A stretch of 64,000 bases of DNA from a phage. The translations under genes and the position numbers were made by a program. Positions 23,061 through 58,169 of the stretch are shown here, piece after piece (position 1 is the stretch's first letter; the number at the start of each line of letters is the position of its first letter). The notes under the pieces were generated by a model, which was given only the letters and a program-made list of their open reading frames with translations, searched no databases and was not told the origin of the DNA. The stretch is from the sequence record PZ171032.1; one strand, 5' to 3'.

Positions 23061-25133
23061 TTATGAGAAGTCTGGCGGGACAACATCTTCTACATACCCT
23101 TTCAGAGCAACCTGCCCCATATGAAGCACGGTAGAATCTCTAGCGGTAACAGTGATGCTGTCAGACATTACTTGCGGGTATGCCCACACATACTGTTTTA
23201 CCTCAGGGTATCTATACTCTATAGTTGCCATGTTTCCGCAAATACATCTCCATAAAAATTCTTGGTAATTCCTAGTTGGGTCGTAGCCATATACCGGAGC
23301 AAGCTCTTTACTAGGAACGAACCCTGCAAGGTATTGTATTTCAGACGGTTGCCAACCTAACTTAACGATAGGTATGTTTACAGACTCTTTTGCCTTTTCA
23401 ATACCTCCCTGCATCACCCAATCGTAGCACTCAGTGCAGAAGAAATCAAGAGCACCTGCTTCCTTTTTATATTGGTCAGCAAGGTTCAGCTTTTGCGTAA
23501 GCTCGGTTTCCATAATGGTTGGGAAAAACAGCAAAGCTGTCATCTGAGCTGATGCAGCGTGTGCTTTTATTGCCTTTGAAATAGCCGCAATACGAGCGCC
23601 AAGCTTACCACGACAAAATGCTACATACTTGTCGTAAACACCGCCAGTTTTAGGATCGTCAATAGTCCCAATATCTAATGCATACTCGCCTGTCTCATCA
23701 TAAAACGCCTGTTTTGTAGGGTAATCATAAATACAAGGTCTACGAGTATCGGTATTGTACCACCACCACGGTTCACCAACCTGCATAATCACTGGCAGGT
23801 TGTTTCTCATAGCGGCTGATGCAAAATTCTTAAATACTGCAGTAAGGAAATTCATACCCTCTTCAATGGTTGGAGACAGGAGGTAGCTACAAGGTGTATA
23901 CCCTGTTTTAGCGTAGTTATCGTTCCAGTCTCTTTGGGTCCATTCCAACGGGCAGGCGTCGCTGAAAAGCTCAAAACTTACAGATTGCATAACGTCGAAG
24001 TTATGTCGTTTGGCATTGTACATAAAATCATCATGCCATTTATAAGCTGCAGCGTTTAGCGCTCCTGTTCTGTTTATAGACCATTGGGTTCCTGACCATG
24101 TGTAGTCATAATAATGACTCATACCAACATAATGGTTTATGGTTCCGGTATAGCCCAGACGCTTGATATTGTTCAACACCCTTAAAGGAGACACGTTCCA
24201 CATATCGTCATATGCGGTGCAGATCCCAACATCGTGCTCTTTAACCTGAATATTGTTAAGTTGCATCATTTTCCAGCCTGTGTCTGGCTGGAGCAGATCT
24301 AGGCGCAACTCACACTCTACATTTTCCGTTCTCGGGTCTGTGCTATTACTTACCCAGTCTTTAGGCATGAGCGGTATTAAAATCCTTCTCACCTGCCGAG
24401 GATCAACACCCATCATGTTGTTGTTCTGGTCCATCCCGACGCAGTCCTCAAAATCAATATGAATTTCTGCAACATTCTTATCCTCTGAGATGCTGACAGC
24501 ATATTGAGCTAAAGGAACATAGATGATTGTGCCATCAACAAGGTCTACAGTCATAATCATCTTTTCAGGAGTGGAGAAGTTGCTGGCGTTGGTTATTGAC
24601 ATTCTGAACCAAAGCTTGGTGTTTCTCATCTCATAGTGATCATCAAACCCAATACCGAAATGGTCATACTTGTCAACTGTTTCCCAAATGCACCCAGCCA
24701 TACCCCCATATGTTCTTGACACTAAACGGTTAATACAACAGTTGTTATCTGCAACAATACAGGTACTTTCAGTCTGCTGAGTAGTTGTAACCCAATACCT
24801 TGGGTGAAACATTCTCTCCTCAACAGTATCCCAAGATATCCTGTCAAGATTCTCATCTGAAACTATTGTACATTTCGCCCTTTGTGTTCCAATCATCACC
24901 CCTTGAGATTTTGATGAAAACTCCATAAAGAAGCTTCTTGGCAACCTGTTGGGTAATTTGTCAACAATTTCCACAGGGATCTCAATACTGGTTGCCCCAA
25001 TTGGGATAGTTACATCGCCCTCAACATGATTATAATCCCTACCAGGAACGGCAGTATCCTGAACTGTTCGGTAATGAAACTGTGCAGCCATTGTAGAGTA
25101 ATCACGGTAAGGTTTAAAAACAGCTGTTGCCAT
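23061..25133 (-). CDS. tail-associated protein with N-terminal Calx-beta-like motif (possible enzymatic fibre)
   Basis: 690 aa; N-terminal VPGRDYNHVEGDVTIPIGATSIEIPVEIVDK resembles Calx-beta; Trp/Tyr-rich remainder suggests carbohydrate-active fold (speculative). Confidence 0.4.
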   Translation of the reverse strand: MATAVFKPYRDYSTMAAQFHYRTVQDTAVPGRDYNHVEGDVTIPIGATSIEIPVEIVDKLPNRLPRSFFMEFSSKSQGVMIGTQRAKCTIVSDENLDRISWDTVEERMFHPRYWVTTTQQTESTCIVADNNCCINRLVSRTYGGMAGCIWETVDKYDHFGIGFDDHYEMRNTKLWFRMSITNASNFSTPEKMIMTVDLVDGTIIYVPLAQYAVSISEDKNVAEIHIDFEDCVGMDQNNNMMGVDPRQVRRILIPLMPKDWVSNSTDPRTENVECELRLDLLQPDTGWKMMQLNNIQVKEHDVGICTAYDDMWNVSPLRVLNNIKRLGYTGTINHYVGMSHYYDYTWSGTQWSINRTGALNAAAYKWHDDFMYNAKRHNFDVMQSVSFELFSDACPLEWTQRDWNDNYAKTGYTPCSYLLSPTIEEGMNFLTAVFKNFASAAMRNNLPVIMQVGEPWWWYNTDTRRPCIYDYPTKQAFYDETGEYALDIGTIDDPKTGGVYDKYVAFCRGKLGARIAAISKAIKAHAASAQMTALLFFPTIMETELTQKLNLADQYKKEAGALDFFCTECYDWVMQGGIEKAKESVNIPIVKLGWQPSEIQYLAGFVPSKELAPVYGYDPTRNYQEFLWRCICGNMATIEYRYPEVKQYVWAYPQVMSDSITVTARDSTVLHMGQVALKGYVEDVVPPDFS

Positions 25134-25819
25134 TAACCCTCCTGTCTAGTTGCGTTTACTGTAATACTTTCACAATAAATGGTTGTGGTGTCCCAATCAG
25201 GTCTTACGTCAGGAACATATAGCAAAGTAGCCAGCCCACCAACTCCGAATTGGTTTTCTTCCCACACTGATCCGAAGCCAAGAGCTGTGGAGTCCCCTTC
25301 AAAACCAAAAGCTTGCCCTTGCGATTCTGTAAGACGCAAATGACAAGGCAATGGTAGCATATCTAAGATCTGGTCGATAGACTGCAGTATGTCAAAGCAG
25401 GTTTTTCTAATGTTTATGTCAAACCTGAAGTTGTCTCCTTTCCACGTATCGAAATTGTCTCTTCCGAACAATTGTCGCAAGGTAGAGATGACATCTTCGC
25501 GAGTCCCGCCCCTTGATGCTGCGGCCTGCTGAATAATTAGTGTGGCACGAAAATCAGCATCTGAAAGTCCATTTCTAAGAATACCAAGTTGATTACCAAC
25601 TTCGTCAAGGTATCTTCCGCTGGCATTGTTAAGCAATCTTCCTTCAGCCAAACCTACCAGCATCTTATCAACATCCTCCAACCTTTTAAGGTACACGGTT
25701 AAGAATGTGACTAAATTAACCTTCTCAGCCAGAAAATCTCCAGGCAGGTAGTCAAGACCTCCCTGAACAAAATCTGGCAGAGTGTGGATGTGGTTAACAT
25801 CCGACTTAATCTCTGCCAT
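25133..25819 (-). CDS. tail/baseplate structural protein (putative)
   Basis: 228 aa; coupled (start/stop overlap) to flanking structural genes. Confidence 0.4.
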   Translation of the reverse strand: MAEIKSDVNHIHTLPDFVQGGLDYLPGDFLAEKVNLVTFLTVYLKRLEDVDKMLVGLAEGRLLNNASGRYLDEVGNQLGILRNGLSDADFRATLIIQQAAASRGGTREDVISTLRQLFGRDNFDTWKGDNFRFDINIRKTCFDILQSIDQILDMLPLPCHLRLTESQGQAFGFEGDSTALGFGSVWEENQFGVGGLATLLYVPDVRPDWDTTTIYCESITVNATRQEG

Positions 25820-25830
25820 ATCTCGCCGCC

Positions 25831-27321
25831 TTAAATAGTTTGTTGGAAAGTTATATTACTTTCGTCGAGGTCAAACACCTCGGTCATGTTCGCAACAATA
25901 TCGTTTGTAGTGTAAGCTTCATCAGAAGCTCCTACTGGTTTAACTTGAATTACCAGTCTATTAAATCTGCCTATTGACACAGCAGCAGATGCAGCACCGA
26001 CCAATTGGATATTATACAACGTATCTGCAACATCCAGTCCGTTAACAACCTGCAAAAGAGCCTCTACAATGGCATCTTTTTCGGTTGTGGAAAGCGCAGC
26101 ACCGGAGTAGGTAATTCTTACATCCAGTCGGTAGGTATTTGCCTTGGAATAATAAATTCTTTCAGTTTGACCGTCAGATGTAGTGACATCGTAGAAAATA
26201 TTACCATAAGTCCTGTTCGTACAGGCGATAGTTTGGTAAAGCGCTTGGCAAATGTCCTCCGTTGCACCACCAAACACAACCACTTGGAACTTGTAAGGAG
26301 GTATACCTTTAGCATCAGTTTTATCGGTGTTGTTGGAGAACACTCTCACTTTCTCAACACCTTTCACCTCGCTTACAGCGCTAAGGATTGCAGGACGAGT
26401 GGCCTTAGATGTTAACTGTTTTGTGCTGGAAGCTCTTAAGCGATACTCGGAGTCTTTCTCAACATCCCTGCCCTCATTGAATCTTTCTCGGTTGGTAAGT
26501 TTGATAAATCCACTGGGCGTAGGCGACATTGTTGTTACGGTTTCTGCCTCTCTTGACAGCTCACCAGCCTCGTTGGCGATAACATCCAGGGTGATAGTTC
26601 TTTCCCCTACAATCGGGGATACTCTGAAATCTACTCTACTATTAAGTCCAACTTGATCAAGATTCGAATTGTACCCTATCCACAACGTCCCTGTCAACAT
26701 ATCGATCTGAATCAAATCGTCGTTCAACAGGGTTGTATTATCGACAATGAATTGCTTAATCTCTCCGTAAAAGCTTGGCAAATCAGAAGAGTCCAGAGAC
26801 TTATCTGTTAAAACCAGGCTTTTTGTTTTGATACTTCCATCTGTCTGGTTGGTAATTTGGAAGTTGTATTTCCCAATCCTTAGGTCTGGAGCATTTATTC
26901 TGTGAGCAATAAGATTCCCTGCTACTTGCACATCGTTGCTAAGAACAAAGTTGCCACTGTCCAGCGTATAAGTTTTGGAATCATAAATCATATTGTACGG
27001 CACAGTTGTGTTGATTGTCAACTGGCAGGTACCTGATGATTTAGAACGGCCTCTTCGGTAAATACCCTGTCTTCCAAGAAGCTCATCTAGGTAAATACCT
27101 TCTGCCCCATACAGCGTCTGTGATGCGTATACAGATGCTGCCATAAGAATAAGTTGATACTCTCTCTCGTTGAAGATAGTGGTCAGCTTATCTGCAACGG
27201 AGTTACTCTGTACGTTGAAGTTTTCGCCAAAAGCACGGATCAGGCTTTGCTTAGTTTCAACGATTAGGTCATTTAGGGTTGGTATAACGAAACCAGCCTC
27301 TGTCAATCCATACTTAGCCAC
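25831..27321 (-). CDS. tail/baseplate structural protein (possible baseplate wedge J/gp6-like)
   Basis: 496 aa; position after central fibre gene; assignment by context only. Confidence 0.35.
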   Translation of the reverse strand: MAKYGLTEAGFVIPTLNDLIVETKQSLIRAFGENFNVQSNSVADKLTTIFNEREYQLILMAASVYASQTLYGAEGIYLDELLGRQGIYRRGRSKSSGTCQLTINTTVPYNMIYDSKTYTLDSGNFVLSNDVQVAGNLIAHRINAPDLRIGKYNFQITNQTDGSIKTKSLVLTDKSLDSSDLPSFYGEIKQFIVDNTTLLNDDLIQIDMLTGTLWIGYNSNLDQVGLNSRVDFRVSPIVGERTITLDVIANEAGELSREAETVTTMSPTPSGFIKLTNRERFNEGRDVEKDSEYRLRASSTKQLTSKATRPAILSAVSEVKGVEKVRVFSNNTDKTDAKGIPPYKFQVVVFGGATEDICQALYQTIACTNRTYGNIFYDVTTSDGQTERIYYSKANTYRLDVRITYSGAALSTTEKDAIVEALLQVVNGLDVADTLYNIQLVGAASAAVSIGRFNRLVIQVKPVGASDEAYTTNDIVANMTEVFDLDESNITFQQTI

Positions 27322-37052: not shown

Positions 37053-37087
37053 TCTTTCTCCTGAAAGGGGGCAAACAGCCCCCTATG

Positions 37088-39685
37088 TTAAAGGTACAAT
37101 CCACGGTATTGAGCATAGAGGCCCAGACCGCGAAGGATTTCGCCAGAGTGATAGCCTACCGGATCAGAAACTGCCCAGCAGCCGTTTAAAACATTATCCC
37201 CATTAATGAAGTGGTGCTTTTGCAGTAGCTTCACACAGGCTTCTACAACAATGTCTATTTGAGGTATTGTCTCTGAATACCCGCACAGACCTAGCCAGCA
37301 GCAACCTGCAAGCCATTCACCTACCACCCACATCCTGTCTCCTCTGTCTTGATAAGAATATCCCCCAGAGGTGTTAAAGTCTGTAGGCAGATTTCCTGAA
37401 TGAGATGACTGGAATCTGTTGAGGAACCATGCCCATTTCTGGCAGAACAGGAATAGTCTTTCATCAACAGGTTCTTTATGTTTCTTGAGCTCATATATTG
37501 TGCGGCACGCAGCAACAAAAGATCTTGACTGGAGCTTAGAGTTATCTACCATCTCCCACCAACCAGCCAACCCTTCATTACCTCTTTGCCATACATAACG
37601 TGAGGCAACTGGACCCTCTGTCTTAAATGTATTGTTATACCAGACTTGAGCGTCATACAGAAAGCCTATTGTATTTGACAATCTATGGCGATCTATGTTT
37701 TCTGCACCCATGCAGTAGACTGCTGGGTATTGCATGCCAGGATAGGGCCAATTTGGCCTTTCCTCTAAAAGATAGTTTTCCTTATCTATTACCTTTCCGG
37801 CAGGGAACACACCTGGTGTGTGCCTGTATGCACCTTGCTTGTAGTTTCTGACATAGCAATCGCCAACCTTAGCGGTTGATTCTGTCTTGCTTGCCATCCA
37901 CACGCTAAACCAGATTAGATAAGCATCTCTATCTGCAATATAGAATTGCGGCAGCGTGTTGACGCAATACAGATCAAACAAGCCATTACCTATCTGCCTG
38001 TCGCTTAGGCTGAAATCTACAGAGGTGAGCCCCTTAGGATTAGCAAAGAAAGGTTTAATCTCTTCTTCGGTGTGATGAGGTTGTGTCGGATCTAGTTTGA
38101 AATCTCCTAGAGTAAGAGTTTCTGTTATCCATTGTCCATTAGTGGCATATAGATCAGCATACCATAACCACCTGTCTTTGTCAAGAAATTTGACCCTTAC
38201 CATCTCATCATCTGATCGATAAGTTACTGAGTTTAAAGAAATCTCTCTCCCAAAATTGAAAGTTACTTTACCTCTTGCTATATTACAACGGGTGAAGTTG
38301 TCAGAGTGGTTGTAAATGTCTGTATCATACTGCATACTAACACTAGCGCCACCGCTTACGGCAATGTTTTCCTCTTTAGGTAAGAGATACGGATTACCGT
38401 CTTTACCAACTACCTCTACGAAATCAGTAACCTTGGCAACTATTTCTGTTACCTCTGCCCCTCCAAAAGGAACCCCTATCCTGTACTGTTTTTTGTTATT
38501 GTTGCCATCATTAAGGATGAAATGTGGCTGGAACAGAACCCCTTCTCCTCCGAAATTCATAACAATTTCAGCATCTCTGCCTATTTTGTATGTAGTCCCT
38601 TTTTGAATTATTTCGCAAGGCTGGCGTGCGTTCATTCTAAAATTGATATACCCGTCACTGTCCCTGCTCATGACAGGAACTGTTCCTGCAACAAGACAAG
38701 CACCATCTGTAAACGGTGCCTTAACCAACGTGGTCTTTCTAAACAGTTTGTCGTAGGCGTTTATGTCACTGAAATTAAGCAACTTGTTGTAAGACTGTTT
38801 AAACGCGGTGTAATACTTTTCCTCACCTGTCAAGGTGTAGAGTTGATAACAAGCGTCACACCACATTTCTTCCCCGTCCAACTCTGGGGCCTGATTATCT
38901 GCAACCACGTTTATAGGATTTACAATTACAGGGGATCCTGCAGGTATCACCGATCCACCCTGCTCTTGAGGTAATCTCACACAATAGGTTACCTTGTGGC
39001 TGCCTGTAACACCCTTATCTTGTAATTGGATTGTGCCGAACTCTACAGACGTATGACCACTATCGGCTATGCTACCGTTAGCCCAATAGCGGTTACCATC
39101 CCATGCTATATACCACTCAACCCACCAACTTAATCCGGATGTTGTCCAATCCGGGTTAGCATCTGTGCCGCCGTAAACATCAGAGTCTACAGTGTTTCTT
39201 CCTAACACACCGTTATACGCTTGGAATGCCTTGTCCAGGTATTCCCCCCATGTCGGAGATCCAGCTGGGATTTTTCCTCTACCATTGGTAAAAGACACCA
39301 CCACATCTTTAAACCCACCATGTGATGGAACCCCATCTGTGGATAGAGGGTAGTGGGACAATCTTTGCATTTTACTTTCTACTGCATATGCACCCAGAAG
39401 ATGGCTATTGTAAGCTTCCCAAGCATCTTTTGCCCTATCCAAGTAGAAATCGCTTTTCGATGCCCTGTATGCTTCAATGTACCCCAGAATCAACACAGCT
39501 TGGGACTCATGCATTGCCCAATCATTATTTATCTTATTACCTGACCACCCTGCAGCTATAAGACCATCAGGGTTTACTAGCTTATTTTGTGTAGGGGTGT
39601 TGGTAATACCTGTGTTGTTATCGAGGCACTTCCTGTGCCCCTCAATCATCTGAAATACGTTATCAATGTTGTGTTGAATACGCAT
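37088..39685 (-). CDS. tail-associated protein, possible glycoside hydrolase/depolymerase-like
   Basis: 865 aa; Trp/Tyr/Asp-rich; segment ILGYIEAYRASKSDFYLDRAKDAWEAY reminiscent of alpha/alpha-toroid glycosidases (weak, from memory). Confidence 0.35.
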   Translation of the reverse strand: MRIQHNIDNVFQMIEGHRKCLDNNTGITNTPTQNKLVNPDGLIAAGWSGNKINNDWAMHESQAVLILGYIEAYRASKSDFYLDRAKDAWEAYNSHLLGAYAVESKMQRLSHYPLSTDGVPSHGGFKDVVVSFTNGRGKIPAGSPTWGEYLDKAFQAYNGVLGRNTVDSDVYGGTDANPDWTTSGLSWWVEWYIAWDGNRYWANGSIADSGHTSVEFGTIQLQDKGVTGSHKVTYCVRLPQEQGGSVIPAGSPVIVNPINVVADNQAPELDGEEMWCDACYQLYTLTGEEKYYTAFKQSYNKLLNFSDINAYDKLFRKTTLVKAPFTDGACLVAGTVPVMSRDSDGYINFRMNARQPCEIIQKGTTYKIGRDAEIVMNFGGEGVLFQPHFILNDGNNNKKQYRIGVPFGGAEVTEIVAKVTDFVEVVGKDGNPYLLPKEENIAVSGGASVSMQYDTDIYNHSDNFTRCNIARGKVTFNFGREISLNSVTYRSDDEMVRVKFLDKDRWLWYADLYATNGQWITETLTLGDFKLDPTQPHHTEEEIKPFFANPKGLTSVDFSLSDRQIGNGLFDLYCVNTLPQFYIADRDAYLIWFSVWMASKTESTAKVGDCYVRNYKQGAYRHTPGVFPAGKVIDKENYLLEERPNWPYPGMQYPAVYCMGAENIDRHRLSNTIGFLYDAQVWYNNTFKTEGPVASRYVWQRGNEGLAGWWEMVDNSKLQSRSFVAACRTIYELKKHKEPVDERLFLFCQKWAWFLNRFQSSHSGNLPTDFNTSGGYSYQDRGDRMWVVGEWLAGCCWLGLCGYSETIPQIDIVVEACVKLLQKHHFINGDNVLNGCWAVSDPVGYHSGEILRGLGLYAQYRGLYL

Positions 39686-39686
39686 C

Positions 39687-40355
39687 TTAGATAGCTCCTG
39701 CGATAATCAGTGCCCCGTACCAAGTTAACCCGTTGTCGTAGGTTTCCAACTTGAAAATATCTGTTGCACCAGCTGTAAATGTTAGGATAGGATCTCTTCC
39801 GTAGGACCATTTAACATTACCAGGCCAATAGACTTTGTTGCCGCCAGAGGTCTGAGTAATGCATACGGTTATAGTTCTCGCCACTCCTTCAAGACCTTCT
39901 GTTTGATTTTCAAAAGAGATTGTGGTATTTGAAGTTAGTCGAACCTTAAAGGTATCCGCAACTTCAAGATCCATATCAAGCTGACCACCGATAGATCCGT
40001 AATCAACTATTCTGCCAGAAGAAGTTGCAGCAAGCTCACCAAAAACAGACCAGGCATTTGCAGACACACCCCCAGCACCCTCTACAGTGGAGTCTGGGAG
40101 GATTATTTTAGGATAATCCCCGTTCCACGTGTAGTAGCGCTTAGTTTCTGGGTCATAAGCAAAGTCCTTCTTGCTCTTAAGATAACCACCCTCTGTGAAA
40201 TAGACTATCTTAGTAATGCTAAGATCGTTGACAACATCGTCAATCTTAGCCTTTCTTGTCCCATCAGTCTGGTTGACAACCAAGAAGTCATCACTCAGGA
40301 CTGTTTCTGCATCTTCAAGATCTGGAATTGGTATTGTAGGATAAGCTACAGCCAT
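39687..40355 (-). CDS. tail fibre N-terminal anchor module protein (222 aa)
   Basis: Shares N-terminal module with 1270-aa fibre; coupled to downstream 865-aa gene. Confidence 0.45.
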   Translation of the reverse strand: MAVAYPTIPIPDLEDAETVLSDDFLVVNQTDGTRKAKIDDVVNDLSITKIVYFTEGGYLKSKKDFAYDPETKRYYTWNGDYPKIILPDSTVEGAGGVSANAWSVFGELAATSSGRIVDYGSIGGQLDMDLEVADTFKVRLTSNTTISFENQTEGLEGVARTITVCITQTSGGNKVYWPGNVKWSYGRDPILTFTAGATDIFKLETYDNGLTWYGALIIAGAI

Positions 40356-40364
40356 GATTTCTCC

Positions 40365-41081
40365 TTAGTTAACATCAATAGCACGACCAGACTGGTTGGC
40401 AATAGCCTCATCATTGGAGGTAGCAATAACACCAGAGTATTCGCGCTCATCTGGAGCAAGCGTCCAGGTATTGCGGTTAATGGTTTGTTCTGCCTCAGTC
40501 ATCAGCAGATCTTTATCCTGAGTCAACAGAGAGCCTACAGGGATCGGGTTTTCCATCTCAGGACCAGCATACTGGTTCCACCATGTGGCATCTCCGGTTC
40601 TAGGTAATCTGAAGTTGATCAGGTAGTACAGTTTATTAGCCCACTTAATCCAACCCTCATCATCACAGAGAGAGGTTGTCCCAGAATCAGGTTGTGGGTA
40701 GGTGAACTGATCAAGACCTACGAAAGCCAGCCTTACAATCTCGTTCTCTTTGGTAACAACCTCGAAGAACGCTTGGTATGTTCTCGATCTTCGGTCCATG
40801 GTAGACTGGAAGTTTATGATGTTTAGCACATCCGGCTCTTGTCTTGCCACTTCCATGATCTTGTTATCAAGAACAGTCTTCATGACCTTCTTGCTGAGAA
40901 AGTCCATATAAGGGAAGCCAAACAGCTCGTCAAAGTACCAGCTCCCCTTCCACGTATTAAACCTCATCCACAAGCGCTGGCGCAGACTTACCTGGTTTGA
41001 ATCTATCAACTCAAGACCTTTGTCTATCGCCAAATCGCCTGTCTGCGGGTCCATCAATATATCACTATAAAGCGTAGCCAT
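40365..41081 (-). CDS. baseplate protein, possibly gp25/W-like wedge
   Basis: 238 aa; N-terminal DILMDPQTGDLAIDKGLELIDSNQVSLRQRLWMRFNT...FGFPY resembles gp25/GPW-family pattern (moderate). Confidence 0.4.
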   Translation of the reverse strand: MATLYSDILMDPQTGDLAIDKGLELIDSNQVSLRQRLWMRFNTWKGSWYFDELFGFPYMDFLSKKVMKTVLDNKIMEVARQEPDVLNIINFQSTMDRRSRTYQAFFEVVTKENEIVRLAFVGLDQFTYPQPDSGTTSLCDDEGWIKWANKLYYLINFRLPRTGDATWWNQYAGPEMENPIPVGSLLTQDKDLLMTEAEQTINRNTWTLAPDEREYSGVIATSNDEAIANQSGRAIDVN

Positions 41082-41093: not shown

Positions 41094-41771
41094 TTAGTGC
41101 GGTCCACTTGTCTCGCCATCAGGGCAAGAGTGGGTATGACCTTTATATTCTGCATAGAATGAATCCAAATCCACACCTGCAGCAGTTATAATTCTACCAG
41201 ATGGGTCTATTGTAGCACCATTCATTCTGATATTCCCATCCACAGCAGCTCGCAAATTGGCAGCCCCGTTAGTGAAAGAAAACTCCCCGCTGCTGTCGCA
41301 CCGTAATGTCCCACCAGGTGTTTGAAGCTCAAAATCGCCAGAAGGTGTCAGTTTAAAATAAACTCTATCATTCCATAACTCTACGTTATCAGGATCGATC
41401 TGTAAGGCGTTTGAGTCTGAATGAACAGAGGTGATTGCCCACCCTGGAAACAGGCCGTGAGTTTGTTGATCGTCATTATTGTTTTCATTCCTCTCTGAAA
41501 ACTGCAATCCTACAACATCTCCAGCCTTAATAGGAAGTGTTAACCTTGCCTTTCCGCTGTTTGCAGACATCACCTGAATTGGAACGTCATAGATAAGAGG
41601 GTATCTCTCCACATCTCCGTCATCAAACGTGGTTTCAGCTATTGGCTGCACGGCTGCAGAAGGTATACTGTAGTCAACACTGACAACTCTGGCCCTGATA
41701 CTTGTGTGGTAATCCCTCATTATTTTTTCTATGAAGGATCTTACAGCAGCATCTTTCCTATTTATTGCCAT
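41094..41771 (-). CDS. baseplate central spike, gpV/Mu gp45-like (OB-fold with C-terminal HxH tip motif)
   Basis: 225 aa; C-terminus YKGHTHSCPDGETSGPH resembles the metal-binding apex of phage and T6SS spikes. Confidence 0.5.
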   Translation of the reverse strand: MAINRKDAAVRSFIEKIMRDYHTSIRARVVSVDYSIPSAAVQPIAETTFDDGDVERYPLIYDVPIQVMSANSGKARLTLPIKAGDVVGLQFSERNENNNDDQQTHGLFPGWAITSVHSDSNALQIDPDNVELWNDRVYFKLTPSGDFELQTPGGTLRCDSSGEFSFTNGAANLRAAVDGNIRMNGATIDPSGRIITAAGVDLDSFYAEYKGHTHSCPDGETSGPH

Positions 41772-42775
41772 TATACCTCCTCAGTTTTGTCAACAACTCC
41801 ACCCACTGTTTCCCCAAGGCCAAGCTCTGTAGTGTAATCACCTCCTTCTATGGTGCCCTTATGATGCACCGTGATCACCTTATAGAATCCTGTATATTGC
41901 TTGCTTTTAAGATAAATAGTGGACTCTGGGAGGATAGCTCCGTTAAGGCATGTGGTTACAGTAAGGCCAACATCCTCTCTCGGGTTTTTCTTTTTCTTTT
42001 TAGATGTCGAACCACCTTTGGCAGCAGCTTTAGCTTTTCGTTTTTTAGCAGGTTCTGGGTTTTTAGGGGTAGGCGATCCGTGCATCCCAGACTCTGCACT
42101 TATTTCAAACACAGAGTCTTTGAACCTTTTTCCAACCTTGGTCCAATACAAAGCTCCATCCTGAACGCTAAACGTGGAGTTGGTCAGCCTTGCAAACCTG
42201 CGTAGGTTCTCTGCAGTGTTTCCAGAGAAAGCCATAGAGTATTGCAAAGTCTGGTTTCCAAAACCAACAACCCTACCTTTTGGCAAGTTCATATCCTTCA
42301 GCAGGTCATTAAGCACAGAATTCAGAGGTGTTCCTTTCTGATAAGATCTTGTGCTTTGGCACTTAATGATGTTCTCAGTACCATCCCCAAAGATGAACTT
42401 AGTTTTTCTGGTCGGACCTTCCCACCTGTCTTCAACAAACTCTACAGTTCCGGAGAATATCAACTGGTTCTCATCATCATAGCCAGCCTCAAACATGACT
42501 GCAAGGGCATCAGCCTGATGCATATCCAGATAGTTAACTGTATCGTCAGACAGGTTGTAAACTGTCACATAACCTTTGTTTGGCTCTTTGGTATTGTCCT
42601 TTTGTATGTCAAACTCTATATTGGCAGCACCAGTGTCTGAGCTAACTTCATAAACTCCGGAATCACTATCCCCTTTCTTTTCAACAGATTTTGGGATATT
42701 GGTTTTTGATTTACCGCCATGTTCTACCGGACGACCAAACAATAATCGCCATGTTCTACGTCTGTACTCTGCCAT
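41771..42775 (-). CDS. baseplate hub-like protein with Lys-rich low-complexity insert
   Basis: 334 aa; located between TMP-proximal genes and spike; KKRKAKAAAKGGSTSKKKKKNPRE insert encoded by A/T homopolymer tracts. Confidence 0.4.
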   Translation of the reverse strand: MAEYRRRTWRLLFGRPVEHGGKSKTNIPKSVEKKGDSDSGVYEVSSDTGAANIEFDIQKDNTKEPNKGYVTVYNLSDDTVNYLDMHQADALAVMFEAGYDDENQLIFSGTVEFVEDRWEGPTRKTKFIFGDGTENIIKCQSTRSYQKGTPLNSVLNDLLKDMNLPKGRVVGFGNQTLQYSMAFSGNTAENLRRFARLTNSTFSVQDGALYWTKVGKRFKDSVFEISAESGMHGSPTPKNPEPAKKRKAKAAAKGGSTSKKKKKNPREDVGLTVTTCLNGAILPESTIYLKSKQYTGFYKVITVHHKGTIEGGDYTTELGLGETVGGVVDKTEEV

Positions 42776-43155
42776 TATTCTAACCCTTGCTGTTCCTTGT
42801 AAAGATCAACCGGAGTGCCGTATACAAGTTGTAGCTCAGATCTCGCCCCAAGGTTATATCTTCCAACCCTACCCCAATATTGATCGTCTTTAAACGACAG
42901 CACCATCAGTCTACCTTTCGGTAAATCATCTCTGTAATGCAGTCCGTCTAAAATATCTTGACAAGCTGTTACTTTTCTGGTTACTAAAGGGCTGTCACCT
43001 ACTGGACCAAGAGATAACCACCAGGACTCATCCCTCTCATTCCATTGCATACGCATTTCATACGTTTCGTTGTCTAAAACAACACGCATGGTTTGATCAG
43101 GAAAGCCGTCAATGTCCCACACAAAGGTGATTATGCACCAATCTTTAAGCTCCAT
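42775..43155 (-). CDS. tail/baseplate protein (hypothetical)
   Basis: 126 aa; coupled to flanking genes. Confidence 0.4.
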   Translation of the reverse strand: MELKDWCIITFVWDIDGFPDQTMRVVLDNETYEMRMQWNERDESWWLSLGPVGDSPLVTRKVTACQDILDGLHYRDDLPKGRLMVLSFKDDQYWGRVGRYNLGARSELQLVYGTPVDLYKEQQGLE

Positions 43156-43167
43156 TATACGCTCCCC

Positions 43168-44079
43168 TTATTTCCCGTTAACTCTGTTGTAGTTTCCCTG
43201 CTCAGATGGGACTATGGTAGAGGGTCTTCCATATTCCTGATAATACCAATCAGCAGCTGATTGGGTAACACCGTTTTCATCTGTCCACATCATGGATTTA
43301 TATGGCTGCCACTCCTCTGCAGCATTTGTGGATGCAGTGTCTGCAAATGCCCCTGTGTCCCTCTTGTTACCTACGTTACTACCATTCTTACAGTCGTTGA
43401 CAGCACCTTTTTGTTGGGTCTTGCCTACTTTCTTGGGATTGCTGTATACAGTTGCATTAACAACCTTGTTCAAGTAGAATGTGCGGAACTCTGTAAGTTC
43501 TACATCAAAAACCATTGCAGCACCTTCGCCAACAGACTTGCTGGCAGAAAGACTGGTTATGATATAGTTCTCAAGAAGTCTCTCCTCGGTAACCAAAGAA
43601 ACCAACTGTCGCTTATTAATGATCTCAGTCAAAGCCTCCAGTGCAGCACTTGGTCGCATAGATGCTGCGGGGTTTTTAGAGTCAGTATTCCTATCGATGT
43701 AGTTTTGCTCATAGATTATATGTGGAGATGTATTTACCCTACCAGTAAAAGAAAATACACCATCTTTAATTACAGCGTGGTCTGACAGGGTAGATTTATC
43801 TTCCACCGCAAACCCAGTCTTATCAACAGAATGTTTGAAAGAGTAATTCTCAACCTGATCGAAGATAATGGCAAGATCGTTAGTAAAGTTTTTACCCTTC
43901 ATCTCTATGTTGCGACCGCCATAGTTAAGACCGCTGACAAACATGGTGTACTTTACATCGCTTTCGGTTTGCTGCTCTGCCTTTTCAGCCTTTGGAGATT
44001 TAACCTCTCGAGGCTTGTACAGGTCTTTTTCATCAACTATATTACTTTGCATAACCTCTCCAGGACACTCCGATACCAT
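43168..44079 (-). CDS. distal tail / baseplate-associated protein (hypothetical)
   Basis: 303 aa; first gene after tape measure. Confidence 0.4.
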   Translation of the reverse strand: MVSECPGEVMQSNIVDEKDLYKPREVKSPKAEKAEQQTESDVKYTMFVSGLNYGGRNIEMKGKNFTNDLAIIFDQVENYSFKHSVDKTGFAVEDKSTLSDHAVIKDGVFSFTGRVNTSPHIIYEQNYIDRNTDSKNPAASMRPSAALEALTEIINKRQLVSLVTEERLLENYIITSLSASKSVGEGAAMVFDVELTEFRTFYLNKVVNATVYSNPKKVGKTQQKGAVNDCKNGSNVGNKRDTGAFADTASTNAAEEWQPYKSMMWTDENGVTQSAADWYYQEYGRPSTIVPSEQGNYNRVNGK

Positions 44080-44129
44080 CTAAATATTGTATCATAAAAT
44101 AGCCGTTTTTACAACACTGATAGAATAAA

Positions 44130-44145
44130 GGGGGCCAGAGCCCCC
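44130..44145 (-). terminator. hairpin GGGGGC-CAGA-GCCCCC + U-rich (terminator/attenuator after tape measure gene)
   Basis: Perfect 6-bp GC stem immediately downstream of TMP stop; UUUAUUCUA follows on minus strand. Confidence 0.45.
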
Positions 44146-44156
44146 TGCACAGTTTA

Positions 44157-46493
44157 TTACCAAAGGTCGGTAGACATGAAGTTGATATCTTTATTGTTCT
44201 CCCACTCCAGTTTTGCATCAAATATTTTGTTAAACTCACCCTCATCTATTGAAATCGTGATTTTCCCATCACTGATTTCTAAAGGTAACATTTCCATAGT
44301 TCTTAATTGAGAAGCAAAACCAGGGCCACCTGGTAACGGAAGAGTCCCGCCCGGCAAGGTGTCCAAAGGATTAACAAACCCGTTACCTCCTGATATGATA
44401 TCTTTGCGAATCATATCGCTGATAGTATCCAGCTGCTGATTTCTTTCACTCAACGGGTTGTAACGGTCATTAAACAATTCCCCGGCGCTTAGTATTGTAC
44501 CGATAATGCCTAACTTACCGAGCAGACCAACTTTGCCACCAGGTGTCTTGAGGCCACCTCCCCCCTTTCCTGCCGGAGCGCCACCACCAGATCCTTCTGT
44601 AGTAGCGGCACCCGCTGCTCCAGCTGCACCCCTTAGAGAGTTAAGGAATTTAAAGGTTTTTACAAGCATGGATGCCATGACAAAACCTTTTGTAAGGGCG
44701 TTCACTACCAGCATGATGGCAGCAGCAAACCCTGCCCATTTAGCATAGCTAAAGGTGTCATGAAGCTCTTCAGAATATTCCTTCGTCTTGGCTGTTATGA
44801 ATCCCCATTTAATCCCCCATTCAAGGAAAAACATGCGGATCTTGACTATAGTGTTGTTTAGTTCACCAACTACCCAGTTAAGGCCTCTCACAAATCCACT
44901 AACAAAATCACCAGAGGCATCCCACACAAATTGCAGAGTCTCGCCAGTGCGGATTAGTGTATAATAGAACTCTGTCAGTTCGTCAGACCAACGGGTGAAC
45001 AGTTTCTGACGAGTCAGTTCGATGAAGGTTTTCAGTCTGTTTTCTGCCAGCACGTTAGACTTCTGCATTCTTTCATAGCCAGCTGCAGATGCCTCGTTCA
45101 TGTACTTAGCCACATACTTCATGATCTTGGCTGTTTTAACCTCACCTTTCTTCATCATGTCCATGAACTGATCCATGGATAGTTCAGAAAGACCAAAAGC
45201 CTCTTTAGTGGCCTTGATAAAAGGTTCGTATGCACCCGGCAATGCTTCAGCAAGTTGTTGCTTCAGTTCTTCGGACATTACTTGTCCTTTCCCAAGCATC
45301 TGTTGGATTGCCATAATACCGCGCTGGTATTTTACCTCATCAGCACCATAAGCAGCAGCATACTGGGAGTATGCAGAAAACAGCTCATGCACTTCCTGAT
45401 TTGTCATCTGGTTTTTGGCGTTTACCGACATCTGGGCGTAACCTTGAAGACCAGATTTGAGATCAAAACCAAGACGCATAGCCTCTTGCTGGACAAACGC
45501 AACCTCACTGTTGGCTTTGTTTGGATCTCCAGTAACAGCAGTAAGAGCAGCACTTGCGCCCTCCATCATGTGACCGGATCTGTTAACCGCAGCAAATCCA
45601 GAAAAAGCTGTATACGCAGCTGTTGCATTAATAACAGATCTACGTAAGTCTCTCATGGCATCGCCTAGTGTAAGCGTTTGGCTGGTGGCACTTTTAAATC
45701 CAGACTGCAGCGCTGACAGGTGGGCGTTAAAGGTTGACTTTTTCATTTCCCCGCGAGCAAACCTGGACTCTAACTCTGAGTATCCTGGCAAGCTTCCACG
45801 GAATCCTGCCCCATACTTGGCAGAGAGTCTTATCGCAGAGTTGTAGAGGTGGGTTCTTCTTGCCTCACGATCCGACATAAGCCTATTATCCATACCAGCT
45901 TTACTGTCTCTTCTTAGCTGTCTATGATAACGATTCATAGCGGCTGTCTGGGCTTTCACAAGATTAGGATCTGAAGCCACCCCACCCATGTTCGGGTTGC
46001 CTGGAATATATCTGAAAGACTTGGCGTTAGCAAGAACTCTTGCCTTAGGTGCCTTATAACCCCCATAGGATACTGGTGCAGATTTGGCAGCTTTTTTAGC
46101 CTCTTTAGCTTGCTGCTGGTAGAACTTACGCATCCTAGCCATCTCTGGGTTTTTGGCGGTAAGATTGCCTACAGCTTGCCTACGTCTTGCATTCTCCCTA
46201 CGCTCTATTGCAGCCTTTACTGCAGCCTCTTTCTTGGCCTGAGCAACGCTCTCCCTGTGCAGTTTAGCATTTGCCTGAGATTGCTGTCTGGCAACCCTCT
46301 GCATTGTCTGCTGGGTTTTAACAGCTACCGCCTGCCATCTACTCATGGGGTTGGCTGAGTTAAAATCCTCGCCCAGTTTCCTGAACTCCCTCCCAATACT
46401 GCGAATTTTCTCTACAGCTTTTTTGTAGGAGGAGTTCTCTATCTCAAAGCCAATCTTGTTGACTGTTGTGGCAACTATTTTGTTTGTAGCCAT
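44157..46493 (-). CDS. tail tape measure protein
   Basis: 778 aa; Ala/Gln/Lys-rich helical N-terminal region, Gly-rich hydrophobic C-terminal region (GAAGAAGAATTEGSGGGAPAGKGGGG); lies downstream of chaperone pair with frameshift site. Confidence 0.8.
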   Translation of the reverse strand: MATNKIVATTVNKIGFEIENSSYKKAVEKIRSIGREFRKLGEDFNSANPMSRWQAVAVKTQQTMQRVARQQSQANAKLHRESVAQAKKEAAVKAAIERRENARRRQAVGNLTAKNPEMARMRKFYQQQAKEAKKAAKSAPVSYGGYKAPKARVLANAKSFRYIPGNPNMGGVASDPNLVKAQTAAMNRYHRQLRRDSKAGMDNRLMSDREARRTHLYNSAIRLSAKYGAGFRGSLPGYSELESRFARGEMKKSTFNAHLSALQSGFKSATSQTLTLGDAMRDLRRSVINATAAYTAFSGFAAVNRSGHMMEGASAALTAVTGDPNKANSEVAFVQQEAMRLGFDLKSGLQGYAQMSVNAKNQMTNQEVHELFSAYSQYAAAYGADEVKYQRGIMAIQQMLGKGQVMSEELKQQLAEALPGAYEPFIKATKEAFGLSELSMDQFMDMMKKGEVKTAKIMKYVAKYMNEASAAGYERMQKSNVLAENRLKTFIELTRQKLFTRWSDELTEFYYTLIRTGETLQFVWDASGDFVSGFVRGLNWVVGELNNTIVKIRMFFLEWGIKWGFITAKTKEYSEELHDTFSYAKWAGFAAAIMLVVNALTKGFVMASMLVKTFKFLNSLRGAAGAAGAATTEGSGGGAPAGKGGGGLKTPGGKVGLLGKLGIIGTILSAGELFNDRYNPLSERNQQLDTISDMIRKDIISGGNGFVNPLDTLPGGTLPLPGGPGFASQLRTMEMLPLEISDGKITISIDEGEFNKIFDAKLEWENNKDINFMSTDLW

Positions 46494-46547
46494 GGTTTCC
46501 TCATAATAAAAAGGGCCAGATCCCAGAAAAGGAATCCGGCCCTTAGA

Positions 46548-46913
46548 TTATCCTCTCCTGCGCTTAGCTTTCGCAGCAGCTGCGGCAGCCTTCTGCTCCC
46601 GCTCCATTTCCCTGTTTTGGACGGTATCTAGGAATTCTTCGATATCAAGATACTCACAGAGCTTCAGGAAATACGCCATATCTGCAAGATTTAGCGATTC
46701 AAAATTTTCCCCTTTGAAATTCTTGAGCACCCTGCACCAAAGAAAGTCGAACCAGTTGAGTGAACTATTCTTAGCTGCCCACTCACTGGCCCTCACAACA
46801 ACCTTGCTTATTCCTGCTCTTCCGGAGTCTGATCCAGGTTGTTCACCTGCTGAATCATACCCATCTGCTGTAACATCTCCAGAAGGCTTCCTAAACCGTC
46901 TTGTGTGAAAAAA
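46548..46913 (-). CDS. tail assembly chaperone, -1 frameshift extension (GT-like C-terminal part)
   Basis: The -1 frame relative to 46808..47281 is open from slippery site 46907-46913 through ORF 46548..46796; classic G/GT arrangement upstream of TMP. Confidence 0.55.
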   Translation of the reverse strand, partial: FFHTRRFRKPSGDVTADGYDSAGEQPGSDSGRAGISKVVVRASEWAAKNSSLNWFDFLWCRVLKNFKGENFESLNLADMAYFLKLCEYLDIEEFLDTVQNREMEREQKAAAAAAKAKRRRG

Positions 46914-47281
46914 CAGCCGTAGTTAACCTCCAGAACCTTACCTGCCAGCTTAATCATCTCCAGCAGATGCCCTGCAAACACAACATCAGGGTTAAGCTTA
47001 TCCACACCATCTACGGTAATATCTTCGAACAAGATTTTAAATAACTCTTCAATAGAGCTATCATCGAGTTCTTGGAACAGGTAAGCCAGAGCAGTAGGAA
47101 GGACCTCTGCCATATTCTGACCACCAGAGATAATAGATCCACCGATAGCACCTAGCGGGACAGCCACAATCTTACCGATTTTAGGCATGTTTTTCATTGC
47201 TTTCATCGGTCCCCAGTGGGTGATCACGAAGTTGTGCCCTGCTAAATCAATCTCTGTTGTAGGTCTAAAGTTTATAGCCAT
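46808..47281 (-). CDS. tail assembly chaperone (G-like)
   Basis: 157 aa, acidic C-terminus (TPEEQE); slippery heptamer T_TTT_TTC inside its 3' part. Confidence 0.6.
   Translation of the reverse strand: MAINFRPTTEIDLAGHNFVITHWGPMKAMKNMPKIGKIVAVPLGAIGGSIISGGQNMAEVLPTALAYLFQELDDSSIEELFKILFEDITVDGVDKLNPDVVFAGHLLEMIKLAGKVLEVNYGCFFTQDGLGSLLEMLQQMGMIQQVNNLDQTPEEQE
46907..46913 (-). promoter_or_regulatory. programmed -1 ribosomal frameshift slippery heptamer T_TTT_TTC
   Basis: Minus-strand codons TGT TTT TTC (Cys-Phe-Phe of GCFFTQDG) form X_XXY_YYZ; -1 frame downstream has no stop until 46548. Confidence 0.55.
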
Positions 47282-47443
47282 TTTATAGCATCCTTATTAG
47301 TCATGTTGTGCACCATATTTGTGTATTTTACCATGATTATGGTGCATTGTCAATTTAACCTTTCAAGCAATTCAAGAACGTGTGTCAAAACCATAAAAGC
47401 AAAAAGCCCCACCCGAAGGTGAGGCTTATGCTAAAGTGTGCCC

Positions 47444-47917
47444 TTAGATAATACCTGCAAGACCTGCGAGGCCAGTAAGAGCACCAGTGATGTTATCACG
47501 GTTGAGCCATGCATCCAGAATACCGATATCCCAGTCCAGTTGGCCTACTTCGGTTCCGTAAGTCAGGTCAGGCTGTTTCTGGATCCAACCGATTGTGGAA
47601 ATACCAGGACCCTGGCTACCTTCCAGCAGAACCGGGAAGAATACCAGACCAGTAATCGATGCCTGTTTCTGCCAGTCAGAAAGGTAAGCGTTCCATACAG
47701 AAGTGTTCTGCAAAGACACGGTCATAACACCAGATTGGTTACGGGACAGAGCTGCAGACATTTCACCATCCACACCAACGTGAGGATAAATGTTGTCTTC
47801 GTTTCTTGAAACAACAATCTTGGTGTCAGCAGCGAAGCCAGTGACACGCTGCTGCATCAGATACAGTTTGACCTTTTTAGGGTCATACGCATAAGGAGTT
47901 AAAATTTGAGTTTCCAT
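47444..47917 (-). CDS. tail tube protein (putative)
   Basis: 157 aa; immediately upstream of chaperone pair and downstream of 458-aa gene. Confidence 0.45.
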   Translation of the reverse strand: METQILTPYAYDPKKVKLYLMQQRVTGFAADTKIVVSRNEDNIYPHVGVDGEMSAALSRNQSGVMTVSLQNTSVWNAYLSDWQKQASITGLVFFPVLLEGSQGPGISTIGWIQKQPDLTYGTEVGQLDWDIGILDAWLNRDNITGALTGLAGLAGII

Positions 47918-47927
47918 CTAGGCTTCC

Positions 47928-49304
47928 TTATTCAGTCATTGCAACAGCATTGGTGGATTTAGAACCAACTTTGTCCAGAAGGACGTTGATCCGGATACGA
48001 ACGAAGTGCAGGGCGTTGTTATACACCAGTTCTACTTTCACACCTTCCAGAACACGAGCAGCCAACTGATTGGTTGGGATTTCTGCACGTTTAGGAACTG
48101 TGATGATCGGGTCGTAGAATACATTATTGTCTTCGTCGAAACCCGTCAGGATCGCACCATTCTTAATGCCAGTGTTGATTGGGTTGTTCATCAAGACAGA
48201 TTTGATAACCGGAAGATCATCATCAGACATCTTCATGCTTAAACCCATATTGGAGCGACGATGCATGTACCCAAACATGGATTCTTCAGATCTGAACTTG
48301 ATCCAGTGTGCAAAACGAATAGCGTCTGCATACTGACCTGAAGCACACTTGCCTTCCCAGAAAGCACCAACACCATTAATCATTCTGTAGAAGTTAACGT
48401 GGTTTTCCCAAATCGCCATACGCTGAGTTAAAGTCAGAGATGGGGCAATCACACCCGGCATCTGTTTTAAGTGCAAGCTGTCACCGTAAGACGGATCGTT
48501 GGATGCCATAGCGCCTACGATACCACCCTCTGGAAAATCTTTATCAGCACGAGGATCGTACATGCCAACACTGTCATACTGTGCAGCCATTAGCTTGGTG
48601 GCGATGTTATTATCTTTACCAGTCACATCTTCTGCAGTAGAGTAGACATGCAGCTTGTAGTTAGCCTGAGCCCACTTAGCACATGCTTCAATGTCGGTGT
48701 GGTCTTCATGGCACAGGAAGTACCAATTGTCACGCTCAGCATTGATCTTATCAACTACTGTCGAAGGTTTTTCAGCATTGGCGATATTTTTGATTGTATA
48801 GTTACCGGTATGATAACCAACAGTGCAGTCACCAGTGATGGTGAGAACACCTTCATCAGCCTCTACAGTGATATCGTTCAAGCTATCATCTGCTTCAATT
48901 TTAGTCTTCATTGACTCTGCAATCTGAGTTGCACCTGTTCCACCAGAGATAGGCACTATCAAAGAAGTATTGTAGCTACCTTTTGCAATAGTCATTACGA
49001 CATCGGTATCAGCTGCGGCAGCAATACCTTTAAAATCTACAGTGGTCTTTTCTTTGGCCTGTCTGCCGATCATAACATATTGTGGAGGGAATACACCACC
49101 AAAAGCTTTTGCTGCAAACTCATACGCTGCAGAGCCTTGTGCGAAACCATCTTCCACCATCTGGTCCAGCTCAGCATATACGCGAGCTCGCTCAGTAAAG
49201 TTATTGTGGATAGCGATGAACAGGGGAGTTTCGAAACCTACAGTGTCAATAGGCTGGGTTCCGAGGTTAACTGTAACATCTACCACTTTATCTAAATATG
49301 GCAT
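47928..49304 (-). CDS. tail sheath protein (putative; alternatively large major tail protein)
   Basis: 458 aa; order sheath-tube-chaperone-TMP, baseplate spike/hub-like genes downstream, strong AAGAGGAAACA RBS; no motif-level proof. Confidence 0.4.
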   Translation of the reverse strand: MPYLDKVVDVTVNLGTQPIDTVGFETPLFIAIHNNFTERARVYAELDQMVEDGFAQGSAAYEFAAKAFGGVFPPQYVMIGRQAKEKTTVDFKGIAAAADTDVVMTIAKGSYNTSLIVPISGGTGATQIAESMKTKIEADDSLNDITVEADEGVLTITGDCTVGYHTGNYTIKNIANAEKPSTVVDKINAERDNWYFLCHEDHTDIEACAKWAQANYKLHVYSTAEDVTGKDNNIATKLMAAQYDSVGMYDPRADKDFPEGGIVGAMASNDPSYGDSLHLKQMPGVIAPSLTLTQRMAIWENHVNFYRMINGVGAFWEGKCASGQYADAIRFAHWIKFRSEESMFGYMHRRSNMGLSMKMSDDDLPVIKSVLMNNPINTGIKNGAILTGFDEDNNVFYDPIITVPKRAEIPTNQLAARVLEGVKVELVYNNALHFVRIRINVLLDKVGSKSTNAVAMTE

Positions 49305-50827: not shown

Positions 50828-50881
50828 TATTATTCCTCACTAATGTATTTTACCACAAAGATGAATCAAAAGCAACAATTT

Positions 50882-58166: not shown

Positions 58167-58169
58167 CAG

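Follow-up and report, generated by a model that had tools for sequence, protein, structure and literature searches.

Whether one phage tail can combine the machinery of two tail types is the question raised by a tail gene cluster in a 64,000-nucleotide (nt) stretch of phage DNA (sequence record PZ171032.1), referred to here as the window. All positions are those of the window, and all genes discussed are carried by its minus strand (Table 1). A preliminary description, made from the sequence alone, had reported at 41094-49304 a gene order typical of contractile tails together with a homolog of phage lambda J, the tip protein of a non-contractile tail, and had left two explanations: a true mosaic, or erroneous sheath and spike calls. 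As the homologies described below show, the mosaic is real at the level of genes, in that a whole four-gene siphovirus tail-tip cassette lies inside a myovirus baseplate and fibre gene cluster. The mosaic does not extend to morphology; the tail is not a hybrid and the cassette is an add-on. The best explanation, to which we assign a probability of roughly 0.6, is that a contractile tail of the phi92/phiTE type has been supplemented with a siphovirus tip cassette, co-opted as an off-axis receptor-binding fibre. The cassette encodes a distal tail protein (Dit) of 196 amino acids (aa), a 188-aa tail-tip protein, a 145-aa DUF6950 protein and a 1381-aa J-like protein.

The 8.2-kb interval 41094-49304 aligns end to end, at 97% identity, with more than 100 Vequintavirus genomes, with rV5 (V5), APECc02, V18, Murica and the BASEL phage DrSchubert among the near-identical relatives, and by sequence the window is assigned to this genus of rV5-like E. 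coli myoviruses. Phage rV5 is a myovirus by electron microscopy (EM), with an extended tail of 121 x 17 nm and a sheath that measures 44 x 20 nm when contracted. In the related tail of phi92, a 2026 cryo-EM study identified gp130 as sheath, gp131 as tube, gp134 as tape measure, gp135 as the hexameric tube initiator, gp136 as plug, gp137 as hub, a spike with an HxH tip that coordinates Fe via three HxH motifs, gp139 as sheath initiator and gp145/146 as wedge (PMC13450770). With the exception of gp134, for which tblastn gave no match in the window, the tail and baseplate parts assigned in that study have homologs in the window, in the same order and at 24-44% identity (tblastn). The 458-aa sheath matches the solved tail sheath 9cb9 (E 7e-143) and phi92 gp130 (E 6e-49, 29% identity), and the 225-aa spike matches 9cuy_Y (E 5e-62) and phi92 gp138 (3pqi; E 2.5e-18), the phi92 spike and its Pfam family being identified via accession PF18352 and PDB entry 3pqi. 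The C-terminus of the window spike is ...KGHTHSCPDGETSGPH, with the HxH apex GHTHSCPDGETSGPH read directly from the translation, and the protein is predicted to combine an OB (oligonucleotide/oligosaccharide-binding) fold with a beta-helix and a metal-binding HxH apex. Since sheath and spike match solved structures, the full set of phi92 parts is there and rV5 has a contractile tail by EM, the tail is best assigned to the contractile phi92/phiTE type.

Most calls of the preliminary description are upheld by these results. The sheath call agrees with phrog_205, 9cb9 and gp130, the tube call with KPP10_Orf10, phrog_280 and gp131, the tape-measure call with TMP_3 and phrog_5255, the hub call with phrog_196 and gp137, and the spike with an HxH tip ending in GHTHSCPDGETSGPH with the C-terminus itself and the matches to PF18352, 3pqi and 9cuy_Y. 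The frameshifted chaperone was also borne out: an 82-aa open reading frame (ORF) in the -1 frame is open from about 46920 to 46548, reaching back over the last ~35 chaperone codons, and the overlap holds the canonical slippery heptamer T_TTT_TTC (46913-46907), which phi92 gp132/133 has at the same position and in the same sequence context, EVNY..FF. The gp25/W-like call was right as to the protein, a homolog of the phi92 sheath initiator gp139 that also matches phrog_120, and its gene lies outside the interval originally described.

The named profile hidden Markov models proposed as a check, Phage_sheath_1, Phage_base_V and GPW_gp25, gave no match at E<=0.01 to the 458-aa, 225-aa and 238-aa proteins, and nothing else in Pfam matched the 238-aa protein at that threshold. 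This silence is what one would see if the three calls were artefacts of context and the real tail were lambda-like and non-contractile, with J at its tip. The profiles did not, however, place the 458-aa and 225-aa proteins in a siphovirus major tail family and a non-spike family; they fall in sheath and spike families, sisters of the named ones, so that the label is affected and not the function. With the matches of these sister-family proteins to a solved sheath and a solved spike, the complete phi92 baseplate set in the window, the cryo-EM placement of the phi92 homologs and the contractile tail reported by EM for rV5 (~97% identical), the notion of erroneous sheath and spike calls is refuted and we give it next to no credence.

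The lambda J homolog is equally real, and its gene lies ~9.5 kb outside the interval for which it had been described. In agreement with its assignment to phrog_31, the lambda J families match the 1381-aa protein: Pfam finds Phage_Tail_Tip (DUF1983; E 3e-39) and Ig_J_second (E 1e-30), with Ig_J at 24.5 bits, under its 29-bit cut-off, and the best PDB match is lambda J (E 2e-28). The domains follow one another as a hub (residues 64-460), Ig/FN3 domains (461-650), a proline-free repeat coil (~651-1060), Phage_Tail_Tip (1059-1199) and a C-terminal domain. The single-sequence alignment to lambda J covers only residues 497-679 and 1060-1218, and Pfam Phage-tail_3 gives no match on the protein itself, as might be expected of an ordinary lateral fibre that has picked up shuffled distal domains of lambda J and happens to lie beside unrelated small genes. 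The evidence for the remainder of the protein refutes this, and we hold it to be highly improbable. An hhalign alignment of the family profile extends over lambda J residues 192-841 (probability 99.65%), and the profile finds the T5 baseplate hub pb3 at E 6e-13. PF13550 (Phage-tail_3) is present in proteins homologous to residues 1-462 (45-50% identity), which bear the name 'phage tail tip protein J-related'. A model of residues 1-643 built with AlphaFold2, with a predicted local distance difference test (pLDDT) score of 77, retrieved through Foldseek the lambda tail tip (8iyk J chain, E 8e-36) and DT57C/T5 pb3 (E 3e-30), followed among the top matches by the T1, JBD30 and Chi tip proteins and the RcGTA particle. 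Moreover, the three small genes are homologous to, and syntenic with, siphovirus tip genes. By profile and fold comparison, the protein retains the full siphophage hub fold, beyond the fibre domains.

The resemblance to lambda J has its bounds. The NCBIfam model lambda_TipJ scores 147.6 bits, far below its orthology cut-off of 1950, and the alignment stops at J residue 991 of 1132, so that the final ~140 residues of lambda J are left without similarity. Those residues form the LamB-binding domain. The C-terminal 141 aa of the J-like protein are only 24% identical even to the counterpart in Nonagvirus ESCO3. The central shaft (residues 651-1060; 28395-29622, minus strand) is where Vequintavirus alleles of 1199, 1279 and 1381 aa differ: against DrSchubert, residues 1-650 are 98-100% and residues 1061-1381 are 95-96% identical, whereas identity falls to 24-50% over residues 651-1060, where the two proteins are 182 residues apart in length. 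The proline-free stretch runs for 472 residues (650-1121) and includes repeats of 44-62 aa starting at residues 764, 808, 852, 914 and 965, which are visible at the protein level only, Tandem Repeats Finder having found no repeats in the DNA of the coil region. If fully helical, the 410-residue coil segment would measure ~61 nm, a length compatible with the thin fibres of ~70 nm seen on rV5 by EM.

The preliminary description had likened three small genes before J to tip-assembly genes. They are indeed siphophage tip genes, located at 31572-33140 and thus outside the original interval; orthology with lambda M and L was not adopted, as hhalign of the small-protein families against M and L detected nothing. 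They correspond to the genes of T5/9g type. This holds for the 196-aa protein, the AlphaFold2 model of which (pLDDT 88.8) matched T5/DT57C pb9 in Foldseek with template-modelling (TM) scores of 0.67-0.73 (E 1e-9 to 7e-9), and the family profile of which found the DT57C Dit at E 2e-4; the protein is predicted to have the Dit fold of T5 pb9. The underlying alignment was built from an exhaustive HMMER search, since a word-indexed homolog search gave almost only Vequintavirus copies. The 188-aa protein matched nothing in the PDB, either as a single sequence or as a family profile. Pfam searches with 16 members of its family returned one weak match, PF09931 ('baseplate hub N-terminal attachment domain', E 0.065), which we treat as a lead and not as evidence. 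For the 145-aa protein, DUF6950 was the sole family matched, and its family profile found no PDB entry. The motifs WG..DCC (W-G-x-x-D-C-C) and QRGD (Q-R-G-D) are invariant among 17 homologs, and no histidine is; a peptidase activity is therefore doubtful on sequence grounds, and the label 'cell wall hydrolase' in one GenBank record may be wrong. Single-sequence PDB searches with the 196-, 188- and 145-aa proteins produced chance matches only, and NCBIfam offered no name for any of the three. Database records already label genes of the cassette 'tip attachment protein J' and 'distal tail protein'.

The cassette has boundaries of its own. A strong intrinsic terminator hairpin lies on either side, and the promoter before the Dit gene has an extended -10 element, TGGTAAAAT, which occurs in four exact copies on the coding strand of the window (27355-27363, 33172-33180, 47325-47333 and 50847-50855, minus strand). 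These copies lie 20-44 nt upstream of the Dit, wedge, chaperone and neck genes and are preceded, at 17 nt, by TTGACA-like hexamers, and the element looks like the promoter type of the structural operons. Versions with one mismatch occur upstream of the portal gene and of a short-fibre gene. Given its terminators and a promoter type common to other late genes, the cassette forms a transcription unit of its own within the late structural programme. It also bears the marks of maintenance. DrSchubert and the window differ in the three small genes by 19 changes, all of them synonymous, and the ratio of non-synonymous to synonymous divergence (dN/dS) in the J-like gene is 0.05 for the hub, 0.04 for the Ig domains and 0.10 for the C-terminal 321 residues; 122 phage records carry this gene at essentially full length. 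The cassette, hub domain included, is thus under strong purifying selection. Synonymous divergence (dS) in the Ig and C-terminal parts of the J-like gene is 0.33-0.49, as against 0.04-0.16 in neighbouring genes, and this raised divergence suggests recombination within the gene.

The closest sequence relative outside Vequintavirus is the tip cassette of the Queuovirinae. In Nonagvirus ESCO3, four genes arranged like the window cassette stand next to the tape-measure gene, on its downstream side, and encode a 196-aa Dit (31% identity), a 194-aa minor tail component (38%), a 144-aa 'lipoprotein' (43%, to the DUF6950 protein) and a 1042-aa fibre (52%), the last of which lacks ~340 coil residues that the window J-like protein carries. 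Pseudomonas phage phiPSA1 and an 82-kb Vibrio siphovirus share the ESCO3 layout. Across IMG/VR, 78 of 80 loci hold the whole set of four. The first ORF upstream is of tape-measure size (581-1491 aa) in 67 of the 78 loci with enough upstream sequence, a count that includes two Vequintavirus contigs in which this ORF is a fibre gene, and myovirus wedge genes occur only on the three Vequintavirus contigs. Among GenBank phages, 118 records hold a 188-aa protein that is at least 95% identical, all in Vequintavirus-sized genomes, its conservation within Vequintavirus being 99.5%; the remaining matches are below 60% identity and, among the matches listed, all come from genomes of 30-83 kb. Phage phi92 has no Dit/188-aa/DUF6950/J-like cassette and at the corresponding position, ahead of its wedge genes, carries just gp143, an endosialidase gene, and the 88-aa gp144. 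In Septuagintavirus W70, the gp25-like gene adjoins the wedge genes, whereas in the window the two are 13 kb apart (25133-41081), with the three fibre genes and the cassette between them. The cassette is restricted to the genus Vequintavirus among the myoviruses searched, and its guanine-plus-cytosine (G+C) content equals that of the rest of the window. Taken together, synteny, distribution, the phi92 and W70 layouts and G+C content indicate that the Vequintavirus lineage received the cassette once, long ago, from a Queuovirinae-like siphovirus.

What might such a cassette do on a contractile tail? The axis is already filled by an initiator, hub and spike of its own, so the cassette is inferred to act off-axis; in support, phi92 has the same central hub and spike and yet no cassette. 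An accessory, off-axis receptor-binding fibre is the most likely role. We envisage that the hub domains of a J-like trimer would form a proximal knob, probably with the 188-aa protein and a Dit ring, and that this ring, with the 188-aa protein, would act as the adaptor by which the knob attaches to the wedge or the fibre network. The helical shaft, ~60 nm long and variable in length, would then present the conserved C-terminal binding domain to the cell surface, and the J-type fibre, whether or not accompanied by the Dit ring and the 188-aa protein, would be one of multiple receptor-binding fibres on a 'Swiss-army-knife' baseplate. A bolder version, in which complete siphophage tip complexes (Dit ring, 188-aa protein, J-type trimer and long fibre) sit on the periphery of the contractile baseplate, we entertain only tentatively. 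In such complexes, the hub cone might still be capable of the receptor-triggered opening known from lambda and T5.

The virion data available come from rV5, in which the ortholog of the J-like protein is the 1279-aa gp37, noted in 2013 as COG4733. Mass spectrometry of rV5 virions detected gp37 with 4 peptides and 5 spectra, and the clearly good tryptic peptide among them, GYSETDFPSVFVPEWIEK, is encoded identically in the window. According to the BASEL authors, it is unclear which genes build which fibres of rV5-like phages. A cryo-EM fibre atlas of two Vequintaviruses (baseplate maps EMD-51868 and EMD-51869) places three of nine annotated fibres and describes one unassigned density attached to the head of the TC8 fibre. 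Literature searches returned no paper that presents the four genes as a tail tip put to a new use, and no usable virion proteome or host-range mutant placing gp37-40.

Several points weigh against an off-axis fibre. The rV5 data set is shallow, with only one clearly good spectrum among the five for gp37, and the small-gene products gp38-40 are not among the 19 proteins listed for rV5 virions; this absence means little, as the tube protein itself was barely detected (4 spectra). The papers found contain no structure of the J-like protein in a Vequintavirus, we know of no precedent for an off-axis complex of Dit plus hub, and a new adaptor domain is seen in none of the cassette proteins, two of which, the 188-aa and 145-aa proteins, received no structural assignment in PDB and Pfam profile searches. 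A conserved C-terminal domain on a variable shaft is unusual for a host-range determinant. Finally, the 1270-aa fibre encoded nearby could equally explain the 70-nm fibres seen by EM.

In another arrangement, the J-like trimer alone would enter the virion, with the Dit-like, 188-aa and DUF6950 proteins serving as assembly factors that remain outside it. Lambda K, whose place in the gene order the DUF6950 protein occupies, acts in assembly and is not known to form part of the completed tail. The omission of gp38-40 from the rV5 list also fits, within the shallow depth of that data set noted above. Dit, on the other hand, is a structural ring in every solved siphophage tip, and the lack of any non-synonymous change in the three small genes speaks for tight structural constraints; we consider this arrangement unlikely. 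The cassette might instead contribute nothing to the virion, being either a passenger that is expressed yet dispensable or a relic in decay. Its terminators on both sides recall an inserted unit, phi92-like relatives manage without it and the mass spectrometry support is thin. Either is nevertheless hard to reconcile with genes intact in more than 100 genomes, a dN/dS of ~0-0.05, a promoter of the late structural type, a G+C content fully converged on the genome average and one confident virion peptide of rV5 gp37, and we judge it improbable.

Quite improbable, too, is a place on the axis itself, where the cassette would build an alternative tip, giving two kinds of tail, or a central fibre of J type that surrounds the spike or lies beneath it. 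Dit and J/pb3 proteins stand on the tail axis in every known context, and the tube initiator of the myovirus is likewise Dit_like, with a tube-like fold. Yet the initiator, hub and spike set is complete and conserved with phi92, where it fills the axis, the cassette brings no tube, tape measure or chaperone with it, and a central fibre or sheath-less tails are mentioned neither in the EM description of rV5 nor in the cryo-EM text consulted for Vequintavirus. A pair of contractile and flexible particles resembling R- and F-pyocins was considered as well and rejected because the cassette lacks tube, tape measure and chaperone. The off-axis fibre remains our preferred explanation for the cassette.

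Table 1. Tail, fibre and regulatory features of the window discussed in the text (minus strand; positions in the window).
Feature	Product	Position	Strand	Evidence
Tail sheath, DUF3383 type	458 aa	47928..49304	-	Pfam DUF3383; phrog_205 'tail sheath' E 5e-118
Tail tube	157 aa	47444..47917	-	Pfam KPP10_Orf10, phrog_280; phi92 gp131 44% identical
Tail assembly chaperone	157 aa (46808-47281) + -1 extension	46548..47281	-	Phage_TAC_15 E 3e-23
Tape measure protein	778 aa	44157..46493	-	Pfam TMP_3, phrog_5255
Terminator after tape-measure gene		44146-44129	-	terminator scan
Tube initiator, Dit_like	303 aa	43168..44079	-	Pfam Dit_like E 4e-22; phi92 gp135 homolog
Baseplate plug	126 aa	42775..43155	-	Pfam Pam3_gp18 E 8e-19; phi92 gp136 42% identical
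Central hub, gp27-like	334 aa	41771..42775	-	phrog_196 'baseplate hub' E 9e-84; phi92 gp137 39% identical
Central spike	225 aa	41094..41771	-	Pfam PF18352, phage spike N-terminal domain
Sheath initiator, gp25-like	238 aa	40365..41081	-	phrog_4233; phrog_120 'baseplate wedge subunit' E 1e-20
Three fibre/adaptor genes	222, 865 and 1270 aa	33240..40355	-	222 aa, Tail_spike_N; 865 aa, phi92 gp141 homolog
Fibre	1270 aa	33240-37052	-	Tail_spike_N + Peptidase_S74
Upstream cassette boundary, intrinsic terminator		33232-33213	-	terminator scan
Cassette promoter, TTGCGT-N17-TAAAAT, extended -10 (TGGTAAAAT)		33200-33172	-	sequence scan
Distal tail protein (Dit), T5 pb9 type	196 aa	32550..33140	-	phrog_1302 'distal tail protein'
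Tail-tip protein	188 aa	31997..32563	-	phrog_2048 'tail protein'
DUF6950 protein, lambda K position	145 aa	31572..32009	-	Pfam DUF6950 E 3e-33
J/pb3-type hub-plus-fibre protein	1381 aa	27427..31572	-	phrog_31 'central tail fiber J' E 1e-159
Downstream cassette boundary, intrinsic terminator		27420-27399	-	terminator scan
Wedge-gene promoter, TTGACT-N17-TAAAAT		27383-27355	-	sequence scan
Wedge protein, Baseplate_J	496 aa	25831-27321	-	Pfam Baseplate_J
Wedge partner	228 aa	25133-25819	-

Of the three fibre or adaptor proteins encoded between the sheath initiator and the cassette (222, 865 and 1270 aa), none is lambda J-like. The two larger ORFs were considered as the source of the lambda J call and rejected, given Tail_spike_N and Peptidase_S74 in the 1270-aa protein and the likeness of the 865-aa protein to phi92 gp141. 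Beyond the cassette, the wedge pair (25133..27321) matches phrog_6 and phrog_4056 and is homologous to phi92 gp145 and gp146. A 690-aa homolog of phi92 gp142, with a TIM barrel like that of the N4 gp65 'non-contractile tail sheath', is encoded downstream of the wedge genes in the window and upstream of them in phi92. Two short-tail-fibre paralogs of 348 and 346 aa, ~43% identical to each other (19950-20996 and 22008-23048, minus strand), flank a Caudo_TAP fibre-assembly gene (21409-21993), whereas phi92 has one short tail fibre. At 12232-19662 (minus strand), the gene for an 1878-aa protein with a Big_2 domain, the counterpart of rV5 gp27, which was weakly detected in virions, adjoins that for a 581-aa protein. 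Because its N-terminus resembles phi92 gp150 and its C-terminus gp151, the 581-aa protein is a chimeric fibre.

Two observations concern the genome at large. The large terminase gene is split (57078-59508, minus strand) into an N-terminal part (59080-59508; Terminase_6N at positions 2-104) and a C-terminal part (57078-58166) that lie ~0.9 kb apart, with an Endonuclease_7-type ORF (58274-58864) between them. In DrSchubert, the terminase is annotated as a joined coding sequence with a homing endonuclease inside, and introns in the large terminase gene were reported in the rV5 paper. In addition, 18 GenBank records of 'Campylobacter phage' (MG0656xx), most of them 135-141 kb and one 87.5 kb, and mostly unannotated, match the window phage, with proteins that are 77-99.5% identical among the matches listed; they are probably mislabelled or contaminant genomes.

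Few E. coli myoviruses are isolated as often as phages of the rV5 type, which serve in typing and biocontrol. Both the phage and the genes are already known, and it is the cassette as a reused whole siphophage tip complex that we regard as modestly novel. If our explanation is true, a siphovirus tip complex of Dit and hub would be a concrete candidate for the unassigned cryo-EM density, and a multi-protein tail module would have moved between tail morphotypes and been reused at a new position, which bears on the modularity of phage tails and on host-range engineering via cassette swaps. Should the cassette prove dispensable, the finding would shrink to a curiosity in a well-known phage genus.

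Comparison with well-characterized tails places the cassette between familiar systems. With the lambda M-L-K-I-J region it shares the hub region, Ig_J/Ig_J_second, Phage_Tail_Tip and the arrangement of small genes before a large J, and it differs from lambda in the long coil inserted into the J-like protein and in having no I-like gene. In T5, the tube of the non-contractile tail is closed by pb9 and pb3, and two further proteins serve as central fibre and receptor-binding protein. The pb9 and pb3 counterparts of T5/DT57C match the Dit and hub of the window by fold and profile, at an identity of only 11-14%. The gp141- and gp142-like fibres and the short fibre with its assembly protein are common to phi92 and the window. 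The siphovirus cassettes stand immediately behind the tape-measure gene and make up the tail tip; in the window, the cassette lies 11 kb beyond that gene, past a terminator and three fibre genes and under a promoter and terminators of its own, in a phage whose tail axis has a separate hub and spike.

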